A DNA stretch of 64,000 nt from Candidatus Sulfomarinibacteraceae bacterium. GTDB lineage: Bacteria > Acidobacteriota > Thermoanaerobaculia > Thermoanaerobaculales > Sulfomarinibacteraceae. Below the pieces are notes generated by a model, which was not told the origin of the DNA, searched no databases, and was given only the letters and a program-made list of their open reading frames with translations. Shown piece after piece: positions 1,850-57,456 of this stretch (position 1 is the first letter of the stretch; the number at the start of each line of letters is the position of its first letter). The DNA is taken from assembly GCA_963796455.1 (NCBI GenBank), contig CAWCLO010000003.1, positions 96,001 through 160,000 of the forward strand, read 5' to 3'. Both the position numbers and the translations under genes were made by a program.

Positions 1850-1952
1850 AGGAAGCGCAATCACCGCTGTCCAAAACAATTCCGCGGGAGACCTTGTCCG
1901 CCCGATGACACAAGGGTTACGGGTTGGTTTCGACATATCCTGTTCGCGATTG

Positions 1953-2408
1953 GCCCGTGCCCGTGTCCGCGTCCGCGTCCGAATTACAGCGACAGTGTCC
2001 AGCGTCAGCGACAGGCAACAGCGATCAGGGACAGGGAACAGCGATCAGTGTTCAGTGATCAGCGGCAGCAGTCTGGAGTTCATGCGGCGAAGTGGCCACC
2101 TCCGGGTCGTTCAAAAGAACGGGGTAGCCGGTGAGCGGCCGAATCGGTAGAGACCGGTCGAACCACTGGAGAATCGCCTACGCCTCGGCGAAAGAGGTCG
2201 ACAGCCACTTGGAGCTCCTCACCAACGCCGGGGCGATCAGCCGGAATGGAGCAAGTGAAGCGATGAAGGCCTTCGATCAGGTCCGTGCCACGACCTGTCG
2301 GTTGTTGAACCCGATAATCTGAGTGCTGTCCGCTGCCGCTGGACACTGCCGCCGTCCCTGTTCGCTGCCCCTGTACGCTATCTGAGACCCTGTATTGGAC
2401 AAGAGTGA
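1953..2408 (+). mobile_element. Copy A of four-helix-bundle-associated dispersed element (internal deletion removes the RBS, start and N-terminal half of the gene)
   Basis: Left CAGCG-rich arm, 5' half of leader hairpin (GGCCACCTCCGGGTCGTTCA, 2094-2113), C-terminal gene half, CGCTG-rich arm, terminus TTGGACAAGAGTGA 2395-2408. Confidence 0.75.
2137..2322 (+). pseudogene. C-terminal fragment of four-helix-bundle protein
   Basis: 48/61 aa identical to the C-terminus of the intact gene at 55340-55693. Confidence 0.85.
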
Positions 2409-2583
2409 AGCGCAAAACCAAATTCATCTGCATGTCCTGCAATTCCTACCGAGGTCGGCGAGGGAGAAGATCCAGCTCAGTGCGCTATCATTACAAACAC
2501 GCGCTGAGGCGCGTTCATTTTCACCCAGACGACTCAGCATGGCGTGTTATTCTGGACTCGTGAAGAGGTGTAAACGAGGCGAA

Positions 2584-11973: not shown

Positions 11974-13614
11974 TCAGCTGGTCGGAGCCTTCTGGTTCTC
12001 CGCGCCGTTTTTCACCCTCTTTTTGACGTCCTTCTTCGGCTCCGTCGGCATCGGTTTGCGCGGCATCATCTCGTCGCGATTTGCCGCGTGCCAGATGATG
12101 GTCGCGATGACCACCGCCGATTGTTTGAGGTCGTCCGCGTGGAGATGGTCATAGGTGTCAACATTGGTGTGATGGGTTCGGCCCATGTAGTCCATCCGGT
12201 CCTGGATGAACTGGTAGCCCGGCACTCCCACCCGGTCAAAGGCCATGTGATCTGTGCCACTGGTCGTTTTCATGGTGACGGTGTCCGCTCCGAGATCGGC
12301 CAATGGGGCAAACCAGGCCTTGAAAATCGGCATCGCCGCCGCGTTCTCCTCGGTGTAGATTCCGCGAAGTCGGCCATTTCCGTTGTCGATGTTGAAATAA
12401 GCCGAAGTGGTTTTGTGGCCCGGCAGTGGTTGGATGGGCCAGGTGGTCTCGCGGGCCCATGCCGGCAGCTCCAGCTGTTCGGGATCGGTGGTCTCCGGCC
12501 GGGTCGCCAGATAACGCTCGACATAATCCCTGGATCCCAGCAGACCCTGCTCCTCACCGCTCCAAAGCCCGACCCGGATCGTACGGCGGGGTTGCAATCC
12601 CGAATCCTTGATGATCCGGAGAGCCTCCATCACCACGGCGCAACTCCCGCCATTATCGGTAGCGCCGGTGCCGGTGTGCCAGGAGTCGAGATGGGCGCCG
12701 ACCACGACGGTCTCGTTCGCGAGATCAGAACCGTGAAGGTCTGCAATGGTGTTGTAGGCCTGGCGGTCTTCGAACCAGGTCACGGCGACATCGATTTCGA
12801 GAATCGGTTCGATATCCCGGTCGATCATCCGCACCAGGCGGTTGTACTGTTCGGTCGCCATCGTCAGCGACGGGACGCCGAGGACATTCTCGGTCGAACG
12901 ATTTCCCGAGTTGCCGCTCACCCGAACGATGCCATTGTCGCGGGAACTCGGCTCAACTGTCGCCAGCACACCTTCCGTCGCATAAAATTCGGCCAACTTC
13001 TCCCGGAACATGAACCTCTTCATCCGACGCTTACGCCAATCGCCCCAGCGATCGCTCGGGACGTCATACTTCTCGAGTTCCGCGAGACCCTCTTCATCCC
13101 AGCGATGGAAGAGCTCGCCCTCGATCTGCTTGGGCTCCGCGGCGTCATCCAGGAGGACGATCGCGCCATCGAGCTTTCCGGCCCACTTTTCGAGGTCCTC
13201 ATCGTTTTCCAGATTGGCGCGAACAACGCGCCCCTGGATCGGACCATCGGTTCCGGGCGCCCACGCGGCCGAGAGCGCCTCGAGCGGCTGAACGTAGGGA
13301 GAGAGCATGCGTACCTGAACGCGGTCGGCCAGCCAACTCCTGCCAAAGTCATAGCTGTCGAGTTTTACGGTGAGACCCCACTCTTCCATCTTCGCCTTGG
13401 CCCACTCGTGGGCTTCGAGCTCCTGCGGAGTGCCGGTCAGCCTCGGCCCCACGCCTTCGGTCAGATTCCAAGCGATATCCATAACTTGAGAGTGCCGGAA
13501 GCCCTGATCGCGAATCTTGGTGACCGCGTCGAGATCGACCGGTTCGCCGCCGTATACCAGGGATGCGATCACGACGATCACGAGAATGAATCCGACAGTT
13601 TTGAGACGAAGCAT
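11974..13614 (-). CDS. M28/M20 family peptidase with PA domain (secreted)
   Basis: GAHLDSW, GATDNG, SGEEQGLLGS, GTDH, HHTNVD. Confidence 0.92.
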   Translation of the reverse strand: MLRLKTVGFILVIVVIASLVYGGEPVDLDAVTKIRDQGFRHSQVMDIAWNLTEGVGPRLTGTPQELEAHEWAKAKMEEWGLTVKLDSYDFGRSWLADRVQVRMLSPYVQPLEALSAAWAPGTDGPIQGRVVRANLENDEDLEKWAGKLDGAIVLLDDAAEPKQIEGELFHRWDEEGLAELEKYDVPSDRWGDWRKRRMKRFMFREKLAEFYATEGVLATVEPSSRDNGIVRVSGNSGNRSTENVLGVPSLTMATEQYNRLVRMIDRDIEPILEIDVAVTWFEDRQAYNTIADLHGSDLANETVVVGAHLDSWHTGTGATDNGGSCAVVMEALRIIKDSGLQPRRTIRVGLWSGEEQGLLGSRDYVERYLATRPETTDPEQLELPAWARETTWPIQPLPGHKTTSAYFNIDNGNGRLRGIYTEENAAAMPIFKAWFAPLADLGADTVTMKTTSGTDHMAFDRVGVPGYQFIQDRMDYMGRTHHTNVDTYDHLHADDLKQSAVVIATIIWHAANRDEMMPRKPMPTEPKKDVKKRVKNGAENQKAPTS

Positions 13615-13696
13615 GAGGGACCTCCATCCTTCAGATCAACGAAGTTTAACGCAGGATCAGCCCGACGGATCTGAAGAATTGTGAAGGGAGGAGGGC

Positions 13697-13848
13697 GGCT
13701 ATGGGGCTATGGGGCTATGGGGCTATGGGGCTATGGGGCAAAATGAGGCTATGGGACGACGCGGCTCTGCAACAACCCGGTGCAACAAATTCTTCTCATA
13801 GCCTCATAGCCAGGGAGCGGCGCGACCGATCATCGCCTCACAGCCTCA
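13697..13848. repeat. (GGCTATGG)5 ... (CATAGCCT)n inverted-repeat element, copy 1
   Basis: Five octamers at 13697-13736, spacer conserved with the 17001 copy, inverted arm from about 13796. Confidence 0.85.
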
Positions 13849-13910
13849 AGGGAATTGTGATGGGGAGTGGCTCTCGTTGTGACAGTAGCTGCCCTCGAGG
13901 TTGCAACGTC

Positions 13911-15260
13911 CTAGGAGTGCCCATTCATCACCGCGATCTTGCGGCCGATGTTGATTGCCATCTCGAGCGACTGTTCGTAGTTGAGCCGGGGGTCGACGCG
14001 CGACTCGTAGGCACGGTCGAGATCGACCTCCGACAAACCCCGGGCGCCGCCGACGCACTCCGTGACGTTGTCGCCCGACAACTCGAAATGCACACCACCC
14101 TGATACGAACCGAGTTCGGCGTGAATGTCGAAGCTCTGCTCGAGTTCCGAAAGAATGTTCTCGAAACGGCGGGTCTTGCGACCGCCGGGTGTTGTTTCCG
14201 TATTGCCGTGCATCGGATCACAGCACCACAGGACGGTCCGTCCGGCACGTTGAACCGCCTCCACCAGGGGTGGCAGCGATTCGGCCACACTCCCGTGACC
14301 CATCCGGTGAATCAGAGTCATCCGCCCGGGCTCGGCATCAGGGTCGAGCGCTTCGAGTAGATCGAGGAGCCACTCGGGTGTCATGGAGGCGCCGATTTTG
14401 AGCCCGATCGGGTTTCGAATTCCGCGAAAGTAATCGACGTGCGCCCCATCAACCCCGGCGGTCCGAAGTCCGATCCAGGGGAAATGGGTGCCGAGGTTGT
14501 ACCAACCCTCGCGGCGCGGTACCTGCCGCGTCTGCGCCTGCTCATAGGGCAGCAACAGGGCCTCGTGGCTGGTGTAGAAATCGACTCGACTGATCTCATT
14601 GGCCTGCGTGCCCGCCAAGGTTTCCATAAACTGCAACGAATCGGCGATACCCTCCACCATGCGCTGGTACTCCTGGGCGCGCGGTGAATGGGACATGAAG
14701 TCGACGTCCCAATACTCCGGGTGATGGAGGTCCGCAAACCCGCCGTCCACCAGCGACCGGATGAAATTGAGGGTCAAAGCGGAGTATTCGTAACCGCGGA
14801 GCATTCTCTCGGGATCCGGAATACGGTCTTCGGGAGTGAAGTCGGGGCCATTAACGATCTCGCCGCGGTAACTCGGAAGAGAAACCCCGTCCCGTTCTTC
14901 GAGGTCTGTCGACCGCGGTTTGGCGTACTGACCGGCAAAGCGCCCGACCCGGATGATCATGCGCTTGAGCCCGAAGGTCAGCACCAGACTCATCTGGAGC
15001 AGAATCTTGAGCTTGTTGGTGATCGTCTCGGCCGAACACTGGTCGAATCGCTCGGCGCAGGCACCCCCCTGAAGGAGGAATCTCTTGCCGGCGGCGGCCT
15101 CCGCGAGCTGGGAGCGAAGCCGTTCGATCTCCCACGAAGTCACGAGCGGCGGCAGCGCGGACAGACGTTCCACCGTGGCCGCAAGGTGATCCTGATCGGG
15201 ATAGGTCGGCTGTTGCGCGGCCGGTTTGTCACGCCACGATGTGGGGCTCCACTGCTCCAT
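13911..15260 (-). CDS. Class II 3-deoxy-7-phosphoheptulonate (DAHP) synthase
   Basis: AAQQP, FLLQGG, GRFAGQYAKPRS, TSHEALLL, CDPMHGNT, DPRLN. Confidence 0.95.
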   Translation of the reverse strand: MEQWSPTSWRDKPAAQQPTYPDQDHLAATVERLSALPPLVTSWEIERLRSQLAEAAAGKRFLLQGGACAERFDQCSAETITNKLKILLQMSLVLTFGLKRMIIRVGRFAGQYAKPRSTDLEERDGVSLPSYRGEIVNGPDFTPEDRIPDPERMLRGYEYSALTLNFIRSLVDGGFADLHHPEYWDVDFMSHSPRAQEYQRMVEGIADSLQFMETLAGTQANEISRVDFYTSHEALLLPYEQAQTRQVPRREGWYNLGTHFPWIGLRTAGVDGAHVDYFRGIRNPIGLKIGASMTPEWLLDLLEALDPDAEPGRMTLIHRMGHGSVAESLPPLVEAVQRAGRTVLWCCDPMHGNTETTPGGRKTRRFENILSELEQSFDIHAELGSYQGGVHFELSGDNVTECVGGARGLSEVDLDRAYESRVDPRLNYEQSLEMAINIGRKIAVMNGHS

Positions 15261-15304: not shown

Positions 15305-15571
15305 TGCCCGCTGCTGTCCACGACACGGGCGGCAGCGGCAGCGAACAGGAGTCAGCGGCAGGGAGCAGCGGTCCGGGTCAGCGGTCAGTATTCAGCGGCA
15401 GCGGTCAGGGGTCCAACGCCGATGCGGCCATCCGCGGGTCGTTCAACCGAAGGAGTAGCCGCTGATGACTGAACGCTGAACCTTACTACTGTTCACTGTT
15501 TACTGTTCGCTGTCGCTGTACACCGAGCGCCGTCGCTGTCCCTGAGCCTTGTCCGAGATTGGACATGAGTG
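15305..15571 (+). mobile_element. Copy B of four-helix-bundle-associated element (empty, MITE-like)
   Basis: CAGCG-rich left arm, GGGTCGTTCAACCGAAGGAGTAGCCG (5' leader-hairpin half), CGCTG-rich right arm, terminus TTGGACATGAGTG. Confidence 0.65.
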
Positions 15572-15580
15572 TGGCGGCCA

Positions 15581-15611
15581 TTGACAATTTTTTATTTGTA
15601 TTATACAAATA
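15581..15611 (+). promoter_or_regulatory. Promoter -35 (TTGACA) and palindromic operator upstream of marR-arsM
   Basis: TTGACA 15581-15586; perfect 9-1-9 palindrome TATTTGTAT-T-ATACAAATA at 15593-15611 in an AT-rich patch. Confidence 0.7.
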
Positions 15612-15626
15612 TATTTGGAGGTTCTC

Positions 15627-16139
15627 GTGACCGAGGTTGAAACCACGACCGACACCCAGGCAAAACAACTGCGAGAGGGCATTCGATTGTTGGTACGAAG
15701 ATTTTCGCTGGCCGAACGAGCTGACATCAGCTGTTGCGGTATGACGGTGGCACAGGCGGCCACCCTGGAGGCGCTTGCAGACGGTGCGCTTCGATTGAGC
15801 GATCTCGGCACCCGGCTCGGAATTGCACCCAGCACCCTCACCCGCAATCTCGCTCGCCTCGAGGAACGAGGTCTTATAGCCAGGCAATCGGACCCGAAGG
15901 ATGGGCGCGCGCAACGAGTCGCCCTCACCGGCGAAGGTGCTGCGGCCGCTGCTGGAGTGAGACTCCAGGAAGAGATTTTTGCCCGCTCTGTCCTTGATCG
16001 CCTGCCCGCGGGCAGCGTAACCGAGACCCTGGCAACATTCGAGACTCTTTTGGCCGCGGTTCGTTCGGCCACCGAGAGCTGCTGCCCCGGAGCCTACGAA
16101 CACCTGATCACAATCTCATCCGAATCGAGGAGGAAATGA
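15627..16139 (+). CDS. MarR family transcriptional regulator with two CC motifs (probable arsenic sensor)
   Basis: wHTH LGIAPSTLTRNLARLEERGLI, DPKDGRA; SCCG and SCCP; overlaps arsM start; GGAGG then GTG. Confidence 0.85.
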   Translation: MTEVETTTDTQAKQLREGIRLLVRRFSLAERADISCCGMTVAQAATLEALADGALRLSDLGTRLGIAPSTLTRNLARLEERGLIARQSDPKDGRAQRVALTGEGAAAAAGVRLQEEIFARSVLDRLPAGSVTETLATFETLLAAVRSATESCCPGAYEHLITISSESRRK

Positions 16140-45284: not shown

Positions 45285-45398
45285 GGAATCTCCTCGTGGG
45301 AGGGGCATCCGAGACGCCCTTCTTACCAGTATACGGAAGCGGGAACATAGCGTTGCCGCTTGATTCGCCCGAGAGGGAAAGGGGGAATCGCACAGTCG

Positions 45399-45460
45399 CT
45401 CGATTCTCGATTCTCGATACTAGATGCTGGACGCTGGATGCTGGATGCTGGATGCTGGAC
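45399..45460. repeat. (CTCGATT)n grading into (GATGCTG)n heptamer tandem abutting element copy C
   Basis: Direct inspection. Confidence 0.8.
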
Positions 45461-45775
45461 TACTCTTGTCCAAGACGGTGTCTCGGAGAGCTTTCAGGGA
45501 CAGCGACGGGGAACAGGAGTCAGCGGCAGCGACCAGCGGCTGGGACAGTGAACAGCACCCATAGCTTCGGGGCTCCGACCTTGGTGGTGCGGCCGTCGCG
45601 GCCGCACGGTGTGCAGGCGAGACGCCTACACCACAACGACTGTTCCTTCCGTTGAACAACCCGGAGGTGGCCACGCCGTCACTGCACCTGGCCGCTGCCG
45701 CTGAACACTGATCGCGGTTCCCTGTCGCTGATCTCTGCCGCTGACGCTGGATACTGTCGCTGCCGCTGTGATTCC
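45461..45775 (-). mobile_element. Copy C of four-helix-bundle-associated element (empty; contains a REP-like pair)
   Basis: Terminus ACTCTTGTCCAA 45462-45473; half hairpin TTGAACAACCCGGAGGTGGCCAC about 45652-45674; both low-complexity arms. Confidence 0.7.
45584..45634. repeat. Inverted pair of REP-like palindromes
   Basis: GTGGTGCGGCCGTCGCGGCCGCAC and the reverse complement of GTGGTGTAGGCGTCTCGCCTGCAC. Confidence 0.7.
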
Positions 45776-45788
45776 CGTTCATGTTTCC

Positions 45789-45870
45789 GAAAGGAGGAAG
45801 GGAAAACAACTCCCTTGCCGGCCGAAGGCTCAATCCCCCTTCTCCCTTTCCCCCCCTTCTCCCTTTCTCC
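45789..45870. repeat. Purine/pyrimidine inverted tract upstream of xerD
   Basis: GAAAGGAGGAAGGGAAAA ... CCCCTTCTCCCTTT; related to 7971-8076. Confidence 0.55.
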
Positions 45871-45922
45871 TCGCCCCAACACTCGAAGCGGCAATGTGGC
45901 ATTTCGGGGGTACGATATCCCC

Positions 45923-47594: not shown

Positions 47595-48143
47595 GGATCA
47601 CTTTTGTCCAAGACAGAGTCTCGGATTGCGTACAGGGACAGCGACAGAATTCAGCGCCAGCGAACAGTCACCAGCGGCAGTGTTCAGTCATCAGCGTCAG
47701 CGATCAGCGACCGGGGCAGGGACTGAACTCGCCGAACGGATGGCCTGATCGGCTATCGACTTCAGCGGAGCGGGAACTCTCATCACGAGTTTGATCGCGA
47801 TGCCTGCTGCTTCGAGGGCTTTCGAGTGGGCAATGAGACTGGTGTTCGTGGCGGCTGAGGACATGGTCACCTCCGGGTCGTTCATGCCCATACCCACAAG
47901 CCGGTGTGGTGGCCGATGTCAAGGATGCCCTGCACCCTGCCTGTCCTTGACATCGGCCGCCCACCGGCTACCCCTTCTGTTGAACGACCCGGAGGTGGCC
48001 ACTTCGTCGCCTGCTCCTGACCGCTGCGCTCTCTCCGTCGCTGAACACTGACCGCTGTCCCTGTTCGCTGATTCCTGTCGCTGTCGCTGGACACTGTCGC
48101 TGTCGCTAGAATTCGGACACGGACGCGGACACGCGCACGGGGC
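47595..48143 (-). mobile_element. Copy D of four-helix-bundle-associated element (intact leader hairpin, C-terminal half of gene deleted)
   Basis: Terminus GGATCACTTTTGTCCAAGAC 47595-47614; hairpin 47865-48000; left end like copy A (CGTGTCCGCGTCCGTGTCCGAATT). Confidence 0.8.
47697..47864 (-). pseudogene. N-terminal fragment of four-helix-bundle protein
   Basis: 43/50 aa identical to the N-terminus of 55340-55693, then runs into flank repeat. Confidence 0.85.
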
Positions 48144-54159: not shown

Positions 54160-55149
54160 ATGGACCTCAAAACCAAATATCTCGGACTCGAGCTCGCCAA
54201 CCCGATCGTCAGCGGTTCATGCCCTCTCGGCGCCAGCCTCGACACGATCCGTCATCTCGAAGATGCCGGCGCGGCCGCGATCGTCCTGCCGTCGCTCTTC
54301 GAGGAAGAAATCATGGGCGCCGTCCAGGCGCAGATGGAAATGGAATCGGCCGGAGCCGGTTTTGCCGAGGCGTCGTCCTACATGCCCAATCCGGAGGGAT
54401 ACCACGTCGGACCCGACAAGTATCTCGACCATCTCCGGGCTGCGAAGGAAGCGGTTTCGATCCCGATCATCGCCTCCCTCAACGGTTCCTCGGCGGGCGG
54501 CTGGACAAACTACGCCCAGAAGATGGAACAGGCGGGTGCGGATGCCATCGAGCTCAACACCTACTACCTCGCCACAAAGGCCGATGAGGACGGCGCCAGT
54601 GTTGAACAGCGCACCCTCGACATCGTCGCCGATGTGGCCAAGGCGGTGAAGATTCCGGTGGCCATCAAGCTGTCGCCGTTTTTCTCGTCGCTGGCGAATC
54701 TTGCCAAGAAGATCGAAGCGAATGGCGCCAAGGGTCTGGTCATTTTCAACCGCTTCTATCAGCCCGATCTCGACATCGAAGAACTCGATGTGGTGCCGAA
54801 CCTGCGCCTCTCTTCCGCCGACGAACTGCGGATGCGGCTGCGCTGGCTGGCGATCCTCTCGTGCCAGACCGAGATGTCGCTCGCCGCGACCGGTGGCGCC
54901 CACAACGCGGTGGATGTCATCAAGGCCGTGATGACCGGCGCCCATTCGGTGCAGATGGTCTCGGCGCTCTTGATTCACGGTCCCGAACACATCAAACGCA
55001 CCCTCGAGGCAATCGATTTCTGGCTGACCGAACACGAGTATGAGTCCCTCGCCCAGATGCAGGGATCGATGAACATGGCCAAAGTCCCGGATGCCGCCAA
55101 GCTGACCCGCGCCAACTACATGAAAATGCTGGACAGCTGGCAGCAGTGA
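54160..55149 (+). CDS. Dihydroorotate dehydrogenase-like protein
   Basis: YLGLELANP, VLPSLFEE, IKLSP, FNRFYQPD; family typically follows nifJ. Confidence 0.9.
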   Translation: MDLKTKYLGLELANPIVSGSCPLGASLDTIRHLEDAGAAAIVLPSLFEEEIMGAVQAQMEMESAGAGFAEASSYMPNPEGYHVGPDKYLDHLRAAKEAVSIPIIASLNGSSAGGWTNYAQKMEQAGADAIELNTYYLATKADEDGASVEQRTLDIVADVAKAVKIPVAIKLSPFFSSLANLAKKIEANGAKGLVIFNRFYQPDLDIEELDVVPNLRLSSADELRMRLRWLAILSCQTEMSLAATGGAHNAVDVIKAVMTGAHSVQMVSALLIHGPEHIKRTLEAIDFWLTEHEYESLAQMQGSMNMAKVPDAAKLTRANYMKMLDSWQQ

Positions 55150-55170
55150 CGCACTTCCAGCTGAGTGATC

Positions 55171-55197
55171 AGGGGCGGCTTCGGCCGCCCCTTTTTT
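55171..55197 (+). terminator. Rho-independent terminator
   Basis: GGGGCGGC-TTCG-GCCGCCCC followed by T6. Confidence 0.9.
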
Positions 55198-55210
55198 GAT
55201 ACTCGATGCT

Positions 55211-55965
55211 GGATCACTCTTGTCCAAGACAGAGTCTCAGACAGCGACCGGGGACAGGGACGGGTAACGGCGGACAGCGTCAGCGAACGGTTGTCAGGGT
55301 CAGCGATCAGCTATCAAAAGCAGCGACCGGTAACGGCGCTCACATTTTCGGGTTCAAGAGCCGCCAGGTCATCGCTCGGACCTGATCGAACGCCTTCATC
55401 GCGTCAAGGGCTGCTGTTCGGCTGATTGCCCCGGCGTGGGCGAGGAGCATTAAGTGGCTGTCGACCTCTTTGGCCGAGGCGTAGGCGATTCTCCAGTGGT
55501 TCAACCGGTCTCTACCGAATCGGCCGTGCCCTTCGGCCATGTTCGCAGGGACCGAACTTACCGACCGGATCACCTGATCGGCTATGGACTTCAGTGGAGC
55601 TGGAACCCTCATCACAAGCTTGATCGCGATTCCTGCTGCTTCGAGGGCTTTCGAGTGGGCAACGAGGTTGGTGTTCGGGACGGCGTTGGACATGGTCACC
55701 TCCGGGTCGTTCATGCCCATACCCACAAGCCGGTGTGGCGGCCGATGTCAAGGATGCCCTGCACCCTGCCTGTCCTTGACATCGGCTGCCCACCGGCTAT
55801 CCCTTCTGATGAACGACCCGGGGGTGAGCACTACGCCGCAGGAACTCCAGACTACTGCCGCTGCTCTCCGTCGCTGAACACTGATCGCTGCCCCTGATCA
55901 CTGATTGCTGACCGCTGTTCCCTGTCCCTGTCGCTGCCACTGCAATTCCGGCACAGGCGCGGGGG
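55211..55965 (-). mobile_element. Copy E (full-length) of four-helix-bundle-associated element
   Basis: Left arm, full leader hairpin 55694-55829, intact ORF, right arm, terminus GGATCACTCTTGTCCAAGAC 55211-55230. Confidence 0.8.
55340..55693 (-). CDS. Four-helix-bundle protein (23S rRNA IVP / bAvd-like family), 117 aa
   Basis: DQVIRSVSSVPANMAEG..R...IAYASAKEV..HL matches the family pattern; GGAGGTG RBS before ATG 55693. Confidence 0.9.
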   Translation of the reverse strand: MSNAVPNTNLVAHSKALEAAGIAIKLVMRVPAPLKSIADQVIRSVSSVPANMAEGHGRFGRDRLNHWRIAYASAKEVDSHLMLLAHAGAISRTAALDAMKAFDQVRAMTWRLLNPKM

Positions 55966-56055
55966 AACCGTGAATCGAGCACCTAGTATTGAATATCCCT
56001 TCTCGCTCGCCGCCTCCTGGCTGTGTATTGGTATTCTCCTGCAAGGGGGCAACGA

Positions 56056-57456
56056 TTGACCACTCGCGACTATTCTGCACTGCTTGCCGAACTGGCTGAC
56101 GAATTGAGGGCTCATTCGCCACGATCCGCGGCAATTCACGAGGCGGCACAGCAGCACATGATCGACGGCGGCAGCCACACCATCAGGCTCTCACAACCGT
56201 TTCCGCCCCGGATCGTCTCCGCACGAGGGGGCTGGTTAACGGATGAAGACGGACACCGGATCCTCGATCTGTGGCAGGGGCACCTGGCAAATGTCCTCGG
56301 GCACAACCCCGAGGTCGTCACCAGAAATCTGGCGGTCGCCTTTGCCGACGGCTTCGGGCTCCAGACCGGCATGGCCGATCGGCTCCAGGTCGAGGTCGCC
56401 GAGATCCTGTGCCGGCAAACCGGCGCCGAACGGGTCCGACTGACCACCTCCGGCACATTGGCCAACATGTACGCGGTCATCCTGGCCCGTGCATTCACCG
56501 GTCGCAGCAAGGTACTGAAGGTGGGCGGCGGTTGGCACGGCGGGCAACCCTGGTCCCTCAAGGGCTCGTTCTTCGACGCCCGTCAAGGTTCAGGTTTTGG
56601 AAGTATCGATTCGGAGGGATTGCCATCCTCCCTGACCGACGAAGTGATCGTCACGGGCTTCAACGATCCGCAACGGCTTCAGGACGATTTTGATCTTTGG
56701 GGAAACCAGATCGCATGCTTCGTCGTGGAGCCCCTGATCGGTGCCGGGGGTCTGATCCCGGCAAATGGTGAGTACCTGAACCTGGCCCGCGATCTCACCC
56801 AGCATCACGGAGCGCTACTGATTTTCGACGAGGTCATCAACGGATTCCGGTTTCACGCCGGCAATCTCGGGGCCTTGTACGGGATCGATCCCGATCTCAC
56901 GGTCTACGGCAAGGCAATCGGCGGTGGCATGCCGGTGGCCGCGGTGGCCGGAAGAGGCACGATCATGGACCAGGCCGGGCGGTCGCAGGGATGCAGGGTC
57001 TTCTTTTCCGGCGGCACCTACTGCGCCCACCCATCGTCAATGCTTGCGGCCAAGACCTACATGGGCCACCTCATCGAGCATGAGGCCGAAATCTACCCGA
57101 AGCTCGGGCGTCTTGGAGAGGGCATGCGATCCGCGATGGTGAAAGCCTTTGAAGACGAGGGCATCCCGACCCAAGCCACCGGTGCGAGCGGAGACCTTCC
57201 CTTCGGCAGTTCCTTGGGAATGATTCATTTCCCATACGACGAGTCCGCCGGGTTCGACACACCGGAGGCGTTGTTTGATCCCGCTCGCTCTGATGTCGCA
57301 CTCCGTGACATGGTGCTCGGCCCCGCCCTGCTCCTGGAAAACGTGAACCTCTTGGTCGGCCACGGAGCAGTTTCGACCGCCCATACTGACGAGGATATGG
57401 TCCTCCTCGAGGAGGCCTGCCGCAGCGTTGCCCGGCGTGTCAGGGTTTACCGCTGA
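56056..57456 (+). CDS. Class III aminotransferase (glutamate-1-semialdehyde aminomutase-like)
   Basis: LGHN, SGT, VEP, FDEVINGFR, YGKAIGGGMP, GGTY; start uncertain (TTG). Confidence 0.88.
   Translation: MTTRDYSALLAELADELRAHSPRSAAIHEAAQQHMIDGGSHTIRLSQPFPPRIVSARGGWLTDEDGHRILDLWQGHLANVLGHNPEVVTRNLAVAFADGFGLQTGMADRLQVEVAEILCRQTGAERVRLTTSGTLANMYAVILARAFTGRSKVLKVGGGWHGGQPWSLKGSFFDARQGSGFGSIDSEGLPSSLTDEVIVTGFNDPQRLQDDFDLWGNQIACFVVEPLIGAGGLIPANGEYLNLARDLTQHHGALLIFDEVINGFRFHAGNLGALYGIDPDLTVYGKAIGGGMPVAAVAGRGTIMDQAGRSQGCRVFFSGGTYCAHPSSMLAAKTYMGHLIEHEAEIYPKLGRLGEGMRSAMVKAFEDEGIPTQATGASGDLPFGSSLGMIHFPYDESAGFDTPEALFDPARSDVALRDMVLGPALLLENVNLLVGHGAVSTAHTDEDMVLLEEACRSVARRVRVYR

Follow-up and report, generated by a model that had tools for sequence, protein, structure and literature searches.

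A gene for a protein of the 23S rRNA intervening-sequence family is carried by a repeated element of a sediment bacterium belonging to Candidatus Sulfomarinibacteraceae, and this element is probably a non-autonomous, cut-and-paste-type element with terminal inverted repeats (TIRs) and a target-site duplication (TSD), which is built like a foldback element around a cargo gene of the intervening-sequence (IVS) type and is likely moved in trans by a transposase. The reference copy, here termed E, lies at 55211..55965 on the minus strand of a 64,000-nucleotide stretch of DNA (the window), which corresponds to positions 96001-160000 of contig C3 of the bacterium's genome assembly (G000; 5.02 Mb in 10 contigs, 60% G+C, 90.5% complete). 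An initial annotation of the window had recognized five such loci, A to E, and these are present at the positions given there, with the proposed common order of parts, namely a left arm, a box, a gene or its remnant, a right arm and a terminus.

A blastn search of G000 with copy E recovers 213 loci at a merging distance of 400 bp between hits (218 at 200 bp), with a family total of 83,988 bp, or 1.67% of the genome. Sixty-three of these possess both a leader hairpin (described below) and the whole open reading frame (ORF), 36 have a part of the ORF (the 3' part in 15, the 5' part in three, and other partial forms in 18), and the remaining 114 lack an ORF and comprise arms or ends alone. The earlier view of a dispersed multicopy element accompanied by non-autonomous derivatives, either ORF-less or ORF-truncated, thus holds across the genome, and the occupied sites differ among species.

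The ends were mapped by aligning 61 full-length copies together with 120 bp of flanking sequence, and the similarity extends past the left border originally drawn, with the left TIR situated about 95-110 bp farther out. Complete copies have a 20-bp TIR, ATCACTSYTGTCCAARACAG, at both ends. In most copies ATCACTGCTGTCCAAAACAG opens the left end; about 100 conserved bases, a series of CCCGNN hexamers and AATTGCAGCGGCAGCGACAG come next, ahead of the arms, and the right end, CTGTCTTGGACAAGAGTGAT, is an inverted copy of the left end; in some copies, the left TIR is fused directly to the arm, making the ends fully symmetric. The previously noted TTGGACAAGAGTGA terminus is a real shared end, but it is in fact the right TIR, whose left partner had been overlooked. 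G000 contains 275 matches to the TIR at up to two mismatches and 164 matches to its 15-18-nt core at up to one mismatch, as against none for the reversed pattern. Sixty-five facing TIR pairs lie less than 1 kb apart and fall into two size classes (345-730 bp, 42 pairs; 786-894 bp, 23 pairs). Their 5-bp flanks are perfectly matched in 24 of the 65, with a mean of 3.6 of 5 positions identical, versus a mean of 2.19 of 5 and 5.8% perfect matches in random pairings of left and right flanks. The signal is confined to this length, with perfect matches in 0-2 of the 65 at lengths of 2-4 and 6-9, and is seen in both size classes (perfect in 9/23 of the larger and 15/42 of the smaller). The duplicated pentamer has the palindromic consensus S-C-W-G-S. 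Hence, the 20-bp TIRs and the 5-bp duplication identify a TIR/TSD element rather than an end-less one; the initial statement that there was no obvious TSD is overturned both by this genome-wide signal and by copy A, which has GCGCA at both flanks. TIR pairs 1-10 kb apart in G000 enclose ordinary genes or two separate copies, no TIR was found at a contig end in this assembly, and a distant blastn search of a plasmid collection with a full copy returned a single 76-bp chance match.

Outside the TIRs, tandem heptamers occur in 35 of the 65 elements and read N5+AT, N5 being the duplicated pentamer and AT the terminal dinucleotide of the element; many copies have these arrays in one direction at both flanks, and other copies have them inverted (e.g., window 55198-55212 and 45380-45460). 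As a speculation, such arrays could arise by repeated insertion and excision at one site. Short tandem arrays of period 7 number 311 in the genome, those of period 8, 6 and 9 number 232, 93 and 33, respectively, and there are none of period 5; 50 of the 311 period-7 arrays lie within 150 bp of a family TIR, and the commonest heptamer units are CGGAGTT, CGGATTT and CGGAATT. A purine-rich array of GGGAGAAGGG-type units occupies window positions 45830-45890 beside copy C, and GGGAGAAA and CTCCTCTG arrays resembling it fill a G000 site that holds an element in G006, a related genome considered below.

The window copies, all five of which are sited between protein genes, and their parts are as follows:
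1855..2414, plus strand: copy A, with both ends present
1855-1859 and 2410-2414: TSD of copy A, GCGCA
1860-1879 (left) and 2390-2409 (right): TIRs of copy A
15305..15571, plus strand: copy B, ORF-less, with arms and box and with degenerate ends
45459..45775, minus strand: copy C, ORF-less, with the right TIR, (CCAGCAT)n heptamers outside it and no left TIR
47597..48143, minus strand: copy D, with left arm, complete leader hairpin, first 50 codons, right arm and right TIR
47597-47616: right TIR of copy D
About 55198-55212: N5+AT heptamer repeats outside the right TIR of copy E
55213..55232, minus strand: right TIR of copy E, reading CTGTCTTGGACAAGAGTGAT on that strand, from the TIR search and comparison with relatives
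55233..55339, minus strand: right arm of copy E, CGCTG-rich degenerate tandem repeats of 6-7 nt, which pair with its left arm
55340..55693, minus strand: cargo gene of copy E, encoding an intact 117-residue four-helix-bundle protein of the 23S_rRNA_IVP/TIGR02436 family
55691..55829, minus strand: leader hairpin of copy E, 139 nt, with the outer stem CACCYCCGGGTCGTTCA / TGAACGACCCGGAGGTG, from folding and covariation
55830..55965, minus strand: left arm of copy E, CAGCG/CAGGG-type 6-7-nt tandem repeats

Within the window, a TIR pair was scored for copy A alone; copies E, C and D retain the right TIR, and the ends of copy B are degenerate. Copy A is a real locus whose left coordinate had been set too short, and its full order is TSD, left TIR, a conserved extension of about 100 bp, (CCCGNN)n, left arm, box, 3' ORF half, right arm, right TIR and TSD. 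An internal deletion has fused its hairpin to the middle of the ORF at a GGCCGA(T) direct repeat, leaving residues 57-115, of which 48 are identical to those of E over an aligned length of 59 rather than the 61 first reported. As originally described, copy D has the 5' half (residues 1-50, 43/50 identical to E), the 3' half being deleted, copies B and C lack an ORF, copy E has an intact 117-residue ORF (55340-55693, minus strand), and no transposase gene is found inside the element. Copy E, whose neighbors are DHODH and an aminotransferase-like gene, is a one-ended copy, as it lacks both the left TIR and the left extension. A permissive Rfam search of window positions 54500-56500 yielded two chance-level matches only. 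Directly to the right of copy B, positions 15575-15627 are AT-rich, with TTGACA and the palindrome TTTGTATTATACAAA, and have the look of a promoter with an operator; the next gene starts near 15628.

The protein encoded by copy E matches the Pfam family 23S_rRNA_IVP (PF05635; 52.2 bits against a cut-off of 33.8, E = 7.7e-14) and the NCBIfam family TIGR02436, "four helix bundle protein" (55.5 bits against a cut-off of 24, E = 5.6e-15); single-sequence matches to solved members of the family are weak (2GSC, E = 0.028; 2RLD, E = 0.34). From its family membership, the cargo protein is predicted to adopt a four-helix bundle, which would assemble into a pentameric ring. The PF05635 profile has 70 matches in G000, as against matches in one of 14 control genomes. 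The 117-codon frame is intact in 55 of the 61 full-length copies, and no two of the 55 proteins are alike. The ORFs show a mean nonsynonymous divergence (dN) of 0.056 and a mean synonymous divergence (dS) of 0.36, with a dN/dS of 0.155, and pairwise differences of 6.2%, 4.8% and 21.9% at codon positions 1, 2 and 3. Among singleton substitutions, 38 are synonymous and 60 nonsynonymous, a ratio of about 0.5, indicating that purifying selection is real but weaker on the youngest changes. About 24 sites per copy depart from the majority, and most of these are shared with other copies; such shared polymorphism, which far exceeds the singletons, suggests exchange between copies or gene conversion. 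When the intact ORFs are placed in a tree, 54 of G000's 55 group in one clade and the 19 from G006 in another, implying either that each species had its own burst or that copies have been homogenized. Nine of the 10 copies with the 3' half (A type) have one common junction, and these copies form no clade on 190 nt.

The CAGCG/CAGGG-rich arms are degenerate tandem repeats with a unit of 6-7 nt, with autocorrelation peaks at lags 6, 7 and 13. Their proposed complementarity is borne out by folding: in 43 copies the left and right arms pair at about -118 kcal/mol, versus -76 kcal/mol for shuffled arms. Between the left arm and the ORF lies the leader hairpin of 139-140 nt (-97.3 kcal/mol, z = -6.85), and the GGCCACCTCC... 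box is the 5' strand of this structure, whose 3' strand, with a Shine-Dalgarno sequence, abuts the ATG. The outer stem, CACCTCCGGGTCGTTCA / TGAACGACCCGGAGGTG, is invariant across nine species. The 3' strand has GGAGGTG a few bases upstream of the ATG, such that the ribosome-binding site is buried in the stem, and the 5' strand starts with CACCTCC, the same letters as the anti-Shine-Dalgarno end of 16S rRNA. Nineteen hairpins from nine species were aligned (6 of the ~60 G000 copies, 5 of 20 from G006 and a single hairpin from each of seven further species); 96.9% of cells are paired, and the inner stem covaries, with 15 of 47 pairs changed on both sides against 5.9 +/- 1.5 in shuffles; the value of 15 was reached in none of 500 shuffles and falls to 0-5 when the partner is slid by 1-3 columns. 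The hairpin diverges between copies by 4.8%, compared with about 22% at third codon positions. In the fold of the whole element (z = -8.2), the arms close a multiloop with the hairpin and ORF inside it.

Comparison of orthologous loci showed that species of the genus differ in which sites are occupied and which are empty. Element DNA was matched in 19 of 31 sampled genomes including G000 (16/18 of the genus and 2/12 of the neighboring family); in most other species, the match is restricted to E positions 136-619, which span the hairpin and ORF. The TIR pattern at up to one mismatch was found in 11 of 25 genomes of the genus, with 1-164 matches in each and none for the reversed control. G034 has about 40 TIR pairs of about 374 bp, G005, G008 and G012 have pairs of ~300 bp with a different interior, i.e., ORF-less elements with the same TIRs, and G006 has pairs of 780-1070 bp that carry the gene. 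The site after the DHODH terminator holds E in G000, a 300-bp element with the same TIRs at the same junction in G005 and G008, and no element in G006, G014 and G001. Of about 45 listed copies in G006, 20 were taken for comparison, and 11 had both flanks on one G000 contig; in G000, four of these 11 sites are empty (gaps of 150-292 bp), five contain sequence of the family, and the other two have larger gaps from which it is missing. Two apparently shared sites have the element in opposite orientation when aligned. Base-level empty sites were not obtained, the intergenic DNA of the nearest species (genes ~80% identical) being too diverged to align. Two species appear to have amplified their copies separately. 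In a scan of a wider collection, paired TIRs came solely from Candidatus Sulfomarinibacteraceae metagenome-assembled genomes (MAGs) among the matches listed, and single TIR matches in unrelated taxa, again among those listed, are mostly due to chance. In four sediment or salt-marsh runs, contigs are concentrated over the ORF and hairpin (summed depth of 360-1770 versus ~0-40 in most flanking bins), and no joint across an empty E site was found in the contigs of these runs. One run has exact contigs over both junctions of copy A, whose site is therefore occupied there; the empty form of this site was not seen among the contigs of that run, which has no bearing on its absence.

The 23S rRNA gene of G000 is 3011 nt long against a 2925-position model and thus has no ORF-sized insert. 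Besides the family members, the genome has four other PF05635 genes, all without TIRs, each between inverted 6-8-nt tandem-repeat arrays, the repeat units being GCAGAGGA, GGGGCTAT, GGAATTA and ATCGCT:
C4:1278094-1278408 of G000: PF05635 gene
C1:983149-983445 of G000: PF05635 gene
C9:2726-3031 of G000: PF05635 gene
C10:733004-733315 of G000: PF05635 gene

More widely, the PF05635 family is present in 69 of 121 sampled Acidobacteriota genomes, a count that includes G060, on which no other result rests. The best PF05635 gene of 28 different Acidobacteriota genomes was examined (30 loci, two being too near a contig end) by local alignment of the 240 nt on either side, with windows 600 nt farther out and shuffles as controls. 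The mean inverted-repeat score of the flanks is 23.7, versus 9.7 for the outer windows and 8.3 for shuffles; individual scores exceed all 20 shuffles in 27 of the 28 genomes, as against 8 of 28 for the outer windows, and 15 flank pairs but no control attained a score of at least 20. Duplex energy, tried as an alternative test of the flanks, failed its control (-134 versus -142 kcal/mol) and was discarded. Taken together, the gene-in-a-hairpin layout is the rule for the PF05635 family in Acidobacteriota, and a TIR/TSD backbone has been added to it in part of the genus alone. A close parallel in architecture is offered by the ORF-bearing 23S IVSs of Leptospira, Coxiella burnetii, Xanthomonas and Brucella, for which PMC4990558 describes a PF05635 protein, an ORF in the loop of a long stem formed from terminal inverted repeats, a suspected mobility and a protein without an explained role, all as in the element studied here. 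That article sets out hypotheses on IVS origin and the excision of the IVS by RNase III, quotes the proposal of Ralph and McClelland that the IVS ORF encodes a mobility component, and treats the mobility of the 23S IVS and the role of its ORF as open since the early 1990s. Unlike the 23S IVS, the element lies between protein genes and has TIRs and a TSD, and occurs at ~210 loci rather than once per rrn operon. The stem formed by its arms is a prediction from folding.

Several other systems offer partial parallels. The mobile insertion cassette (MIC) MIC231 of Bacillus cereus has a parent insertion sequence (IS), IS231, with the same ends. The element resembles MICs and cargo-bearing miniature inverted-repeat transposable elements (MITEs) in its TIRs, fixed-length target duplication, lack of an internal transposase, passenger gene, many copies, miniatures and presence or absence between genomes. 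It differs from MIC231 in that a parent IS with the same ends was not found in the draft MAGs screened, and from MICs in that its cargo is not an incidental passenger but a conserved module of repeat arms, leader hairpin and IVP gene, under purifying selection in 55 copies. Eukaryotic foldback (FB) transposons duplicate their target and have long inverted arms made of short tandem subrepeats, with a middle segment that varies or is missing, and all of these have counterparts here; unlike FB transposons, the element is bacterial, measures ~0.86 kb, has a 5-bp rather than a 9-bp duplication and carries a defined conserved gene in the middle. In IS10 and IS50, "fold-back inhibition" operates through a 5' segment that is complementary to the ribosome-binding site and closes it in transcripts initiated outside. 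The leader hairpin is alike in having a ribosome-binding site closed by a complementary 5' segment, but here the shielded gene is not a transposase, and a promoter of its own was not found in a sigma-70 scan. The Avd protein of diversity-generating retroelements is basic and binds both nucleic acid and a polymerase. Its relation to PF05635 is treated in PMC10053308, and the two belong to a homologous four-helix-bundle fold family; unlike Avd, the cargo protein comes from an assembly without an RVT_1 match, has no template/variable repeat pair and is encoded in ~60 copies.

We propose that a DDE-type enzyme, encoded elsewhere or lost, would cut at the TIRs. At the RNA level, pairing of the two repeat arms would give a stem of ~110 bp, which RNase III might cleave as in the 23S IVS, thereby excising the element from read-through transcripts. 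By the fold-back logic of IS10, the leader hairpin might shut off the ribosome-binding site in these transcripts. For the basic four-helix-bundle protein, we predict that it binds the folded nucleic acid of its own element and helps the element to persist or spread, which would explain why selection keeps the cargo gene.

Certain observations weigh against this reading. A cognate transposase with the family TIRs was not found in the draft MAGs screened. The screen extended to eight Pfam families, among them PF01609, PF13701, PF13546, PF00665, PF01610, PF01526 and Y1, in 1-25 genomes of the genus, all of them draft MAGs, as well as the Y2/IS91 copies met among G000 repeats. The sole PF01609 gene of G000 belongs to an IS5-like element and the PF01609/PF13701 genes of G006 to two IS1380-like copies, in each case with different TIRs; no such genes were found in G034, G005, G008 and G012. 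An IS4-family parent is not supported in view of these different TIRs and of the 5-bp duplication, the target duplication of IS4-type elements being usually 8-13 bp. The ISL3 genes in G008 and G034 are without a family TIR, the one DDE_5 fragment has none nearby, a Tn3-family match was absent from five genomes, and twelve ORFs adjoining unpaired TIRs in three relatives proved to be ordinary genes. The sole rve gene of G000 lies in an IS481-like IS that has its own ends and is nested in the left arm of a family member. As multicopy ISs are often missing from draft MAGs, the failure to find the transposase is weak evidence. Mobilization in trans is something that we infer. Further, copies differ by 8-18% and most TSDs are imperfect, such that the family may no longer be moving in G000; in an immobile family, transposition alone would hardly account for purifying selection on ~55 dispersed copies. 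The structural part of the proposal also meets difficulties. The arm pair of a copy beat cross pairings in 22 of 43 copies; own arms thus pair no better than those of other copies, which argues against copy-specific coevolution of arms. G-U intermediates are scarce in the leader hairpin (3 of 893 cells, with A-C/C-A in 8 cells), which is at least as compatible with selection for pairing on DNA, or on both strands, as with selection on RNA. A crude gene map based on G+C at third codon positions places 14 of 43 full copies between convergent, 9 between divergent and 20 between co-directional genes; of these last 20, 15 are antisense and five sense, which weakens the read-through picture. Finally, a sigma-70 promoter and terminator scan of a full copy gave no sites.

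The IS481-like IS (rve, 382-390 residues), which has doubled subterminal GGACATRGGTAACAC repeats, is nested in family members of two species:
C3:about 12600-13950 of G000 (locus L201, 1000-2370): nested IS481-like IS, in the CAGCG arm
Locus L056 of G012, 880-2160: nested IS481-like IS, in a 300-bp miniature

The second of these insertions accounts for the 1.55-kb TIR pair of G012, the sole such pair. The nesting could reflect either a target preference for hairpin repeats or coincidence. Elsewhere in G000, a 7.2-kb segment is present twice at 96% identity (C10:770619-777833 and C2:1-7218, the latter at the contig start), and two EF-Tu genes are 98.9% identical (C10:270661-271853 and 287735-288927).

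Three other explanations need to be weighed against a TIR/TSD element moved in trans. The initial annotation had pointed to a reverse transcriptase or an HUH nuclease as the mover, with the further idea of an RNA-protein unit, which gains no direct support. A hairpin element moved by an HUH (Y1/Y2) single-strand transposase or by reverse transcription would accord with the nested hairpins, whose pairs avoid G-U as expected for a reading as single-stranded DNA, and with the presence in G000 of two Y1_Tnp + DnaA_C-HTH genes and three IS91-type (Y2) copies. We hold this to be highly improbable: to our knowledge, Y1/Y2 elements have neither a fixed 5-bp duplication nor a TIR of this kind, the 90.5%-complete assembly has no RVT_1 match, and the two Y1 (IS200-like) genes are bounded by their own unrelated 35-bp TIRs (CATAACATCAATACCCCCGTACC...), which are unlike the family ends:
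C4:1143372-1147449 of G000: two Y1_Tnp + DnaA_C-HTH genes, 332 residues, 3 kb apart, each in 35-bp inverted repeats CATAACATCAATACCCCCGTACCTGGCACCTTTAT

This pair is a TIRYT-type element, and its unrelated ends, along with the presence of a target duplication, led us to reject a REP/RAYT or TIRYT class for the family itself. From established transposon biology, TIRs with a fixed 5-bp duplication would instead imply a staggered-cut, DDE-type transposase, and the same signature weighs against a second explanation, in which the element is a self-sufficient foldback cassette, with the protein, together with host replication or repair enzymes, as the mobility or maintenance factor. Here the inverted short-repeat arrays would be protein-binding sites, the TIR backbone one of several vehicles, and the 23S IVSs the rRNA-resident members of the same class. 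Such a cassette would account for the lack of a transposase with the family ends in any genome searched (again weak evidence in MAGs, given their frequent loss of multicopy ISs), for the purifying selection on the ORF in 55 copies, for the inverted repeats around PF05635 genes with or without TIRs (four of four other genes in G000 and 27 of 28 genomes across the phylum), and for the matching in other species of the genus of the hairpin-ORF core alone (E query 136-619), with different arms and TIRs; it also agrees with the mobility component of Ralph and McClelland, as quoted in PMC4990558. However, a 117-residue helical bundle has no known catalytic motif, and the TSD signal of full copies is shared by those whose ORF is missing or truncated, implying that the protein is not needed in cis. 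We therefore consider the self-sufficient cassette unlikely. Still less likely is a domesticated repeat, whose immobile copies would serve the host, for instance as intergenic RNA-processing or termination modules like repetitive extragenic palindromes and bacterial interspersed mosaic elements (REP/BIME), with the protein copies supplying one host function. That copies are 80-92% identical, and hence not recent, that ORFs stay intact in situ, and that many full copies lie between convergent genes (14/43) or antisense between co-directional ones (15, on the crude map), where long stems could block transcription both ways, would suit a domesticated repeat. It sits poorly with sites that differ between species of the genus, TIR matches that range from 0 to more than 160 per genome, the decay of 150 of the 213 loci and A/T runs that are not enriched beside the ends (14/65 versus 16% at random places), and a host function would not require 55 different protein variants.

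The family had been called undescribed. Full-text literature, subscription journals not being covered, yielded no description of PF05635 genes carried by TIR elements or forming hairpin cassettes elsewhere than in rRNA and no paper on such an element, and to that extent the term stands; the kind, a non-autonomous TIR element with cargo, is known. What is new in the literature searched is the cargo, its foldback packaging, the selection upon it and the bridge to rRNA intervening sequences. As a tentative and rather doubtful generalization, 23S IVP-family genes might not be ordinary genes but supply the protein of foldback cassettes, a widespread class in which a gene sits in the loop of a long hairpin composed of short tandem repeats; the protein would act on the folded nucleic acid of its own cassette and thereby maintain or spread it. 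The rRNA IVSs, the 60-copy TIR-borne family and the solitary copies of most Acidobacteriota would then be one kind of selfish element, with the heptamer and octamer arrays as its traces.

Viewed as a TIR/TSD element, the family is a free-standing relative of the IVS with the textbook marks of transposition, and its dozens of intact, diverged copies reveal selection on both the protein and the leader hairpin. A 5-Mb genome spends 1.67% of its DNA on this one family. PF05635 genes, which are annotated plainly as "four helix bundle protein," are probable mobile-element cargo, and the old idea that the 23S IVS is mobile now becomes experimentally testable.

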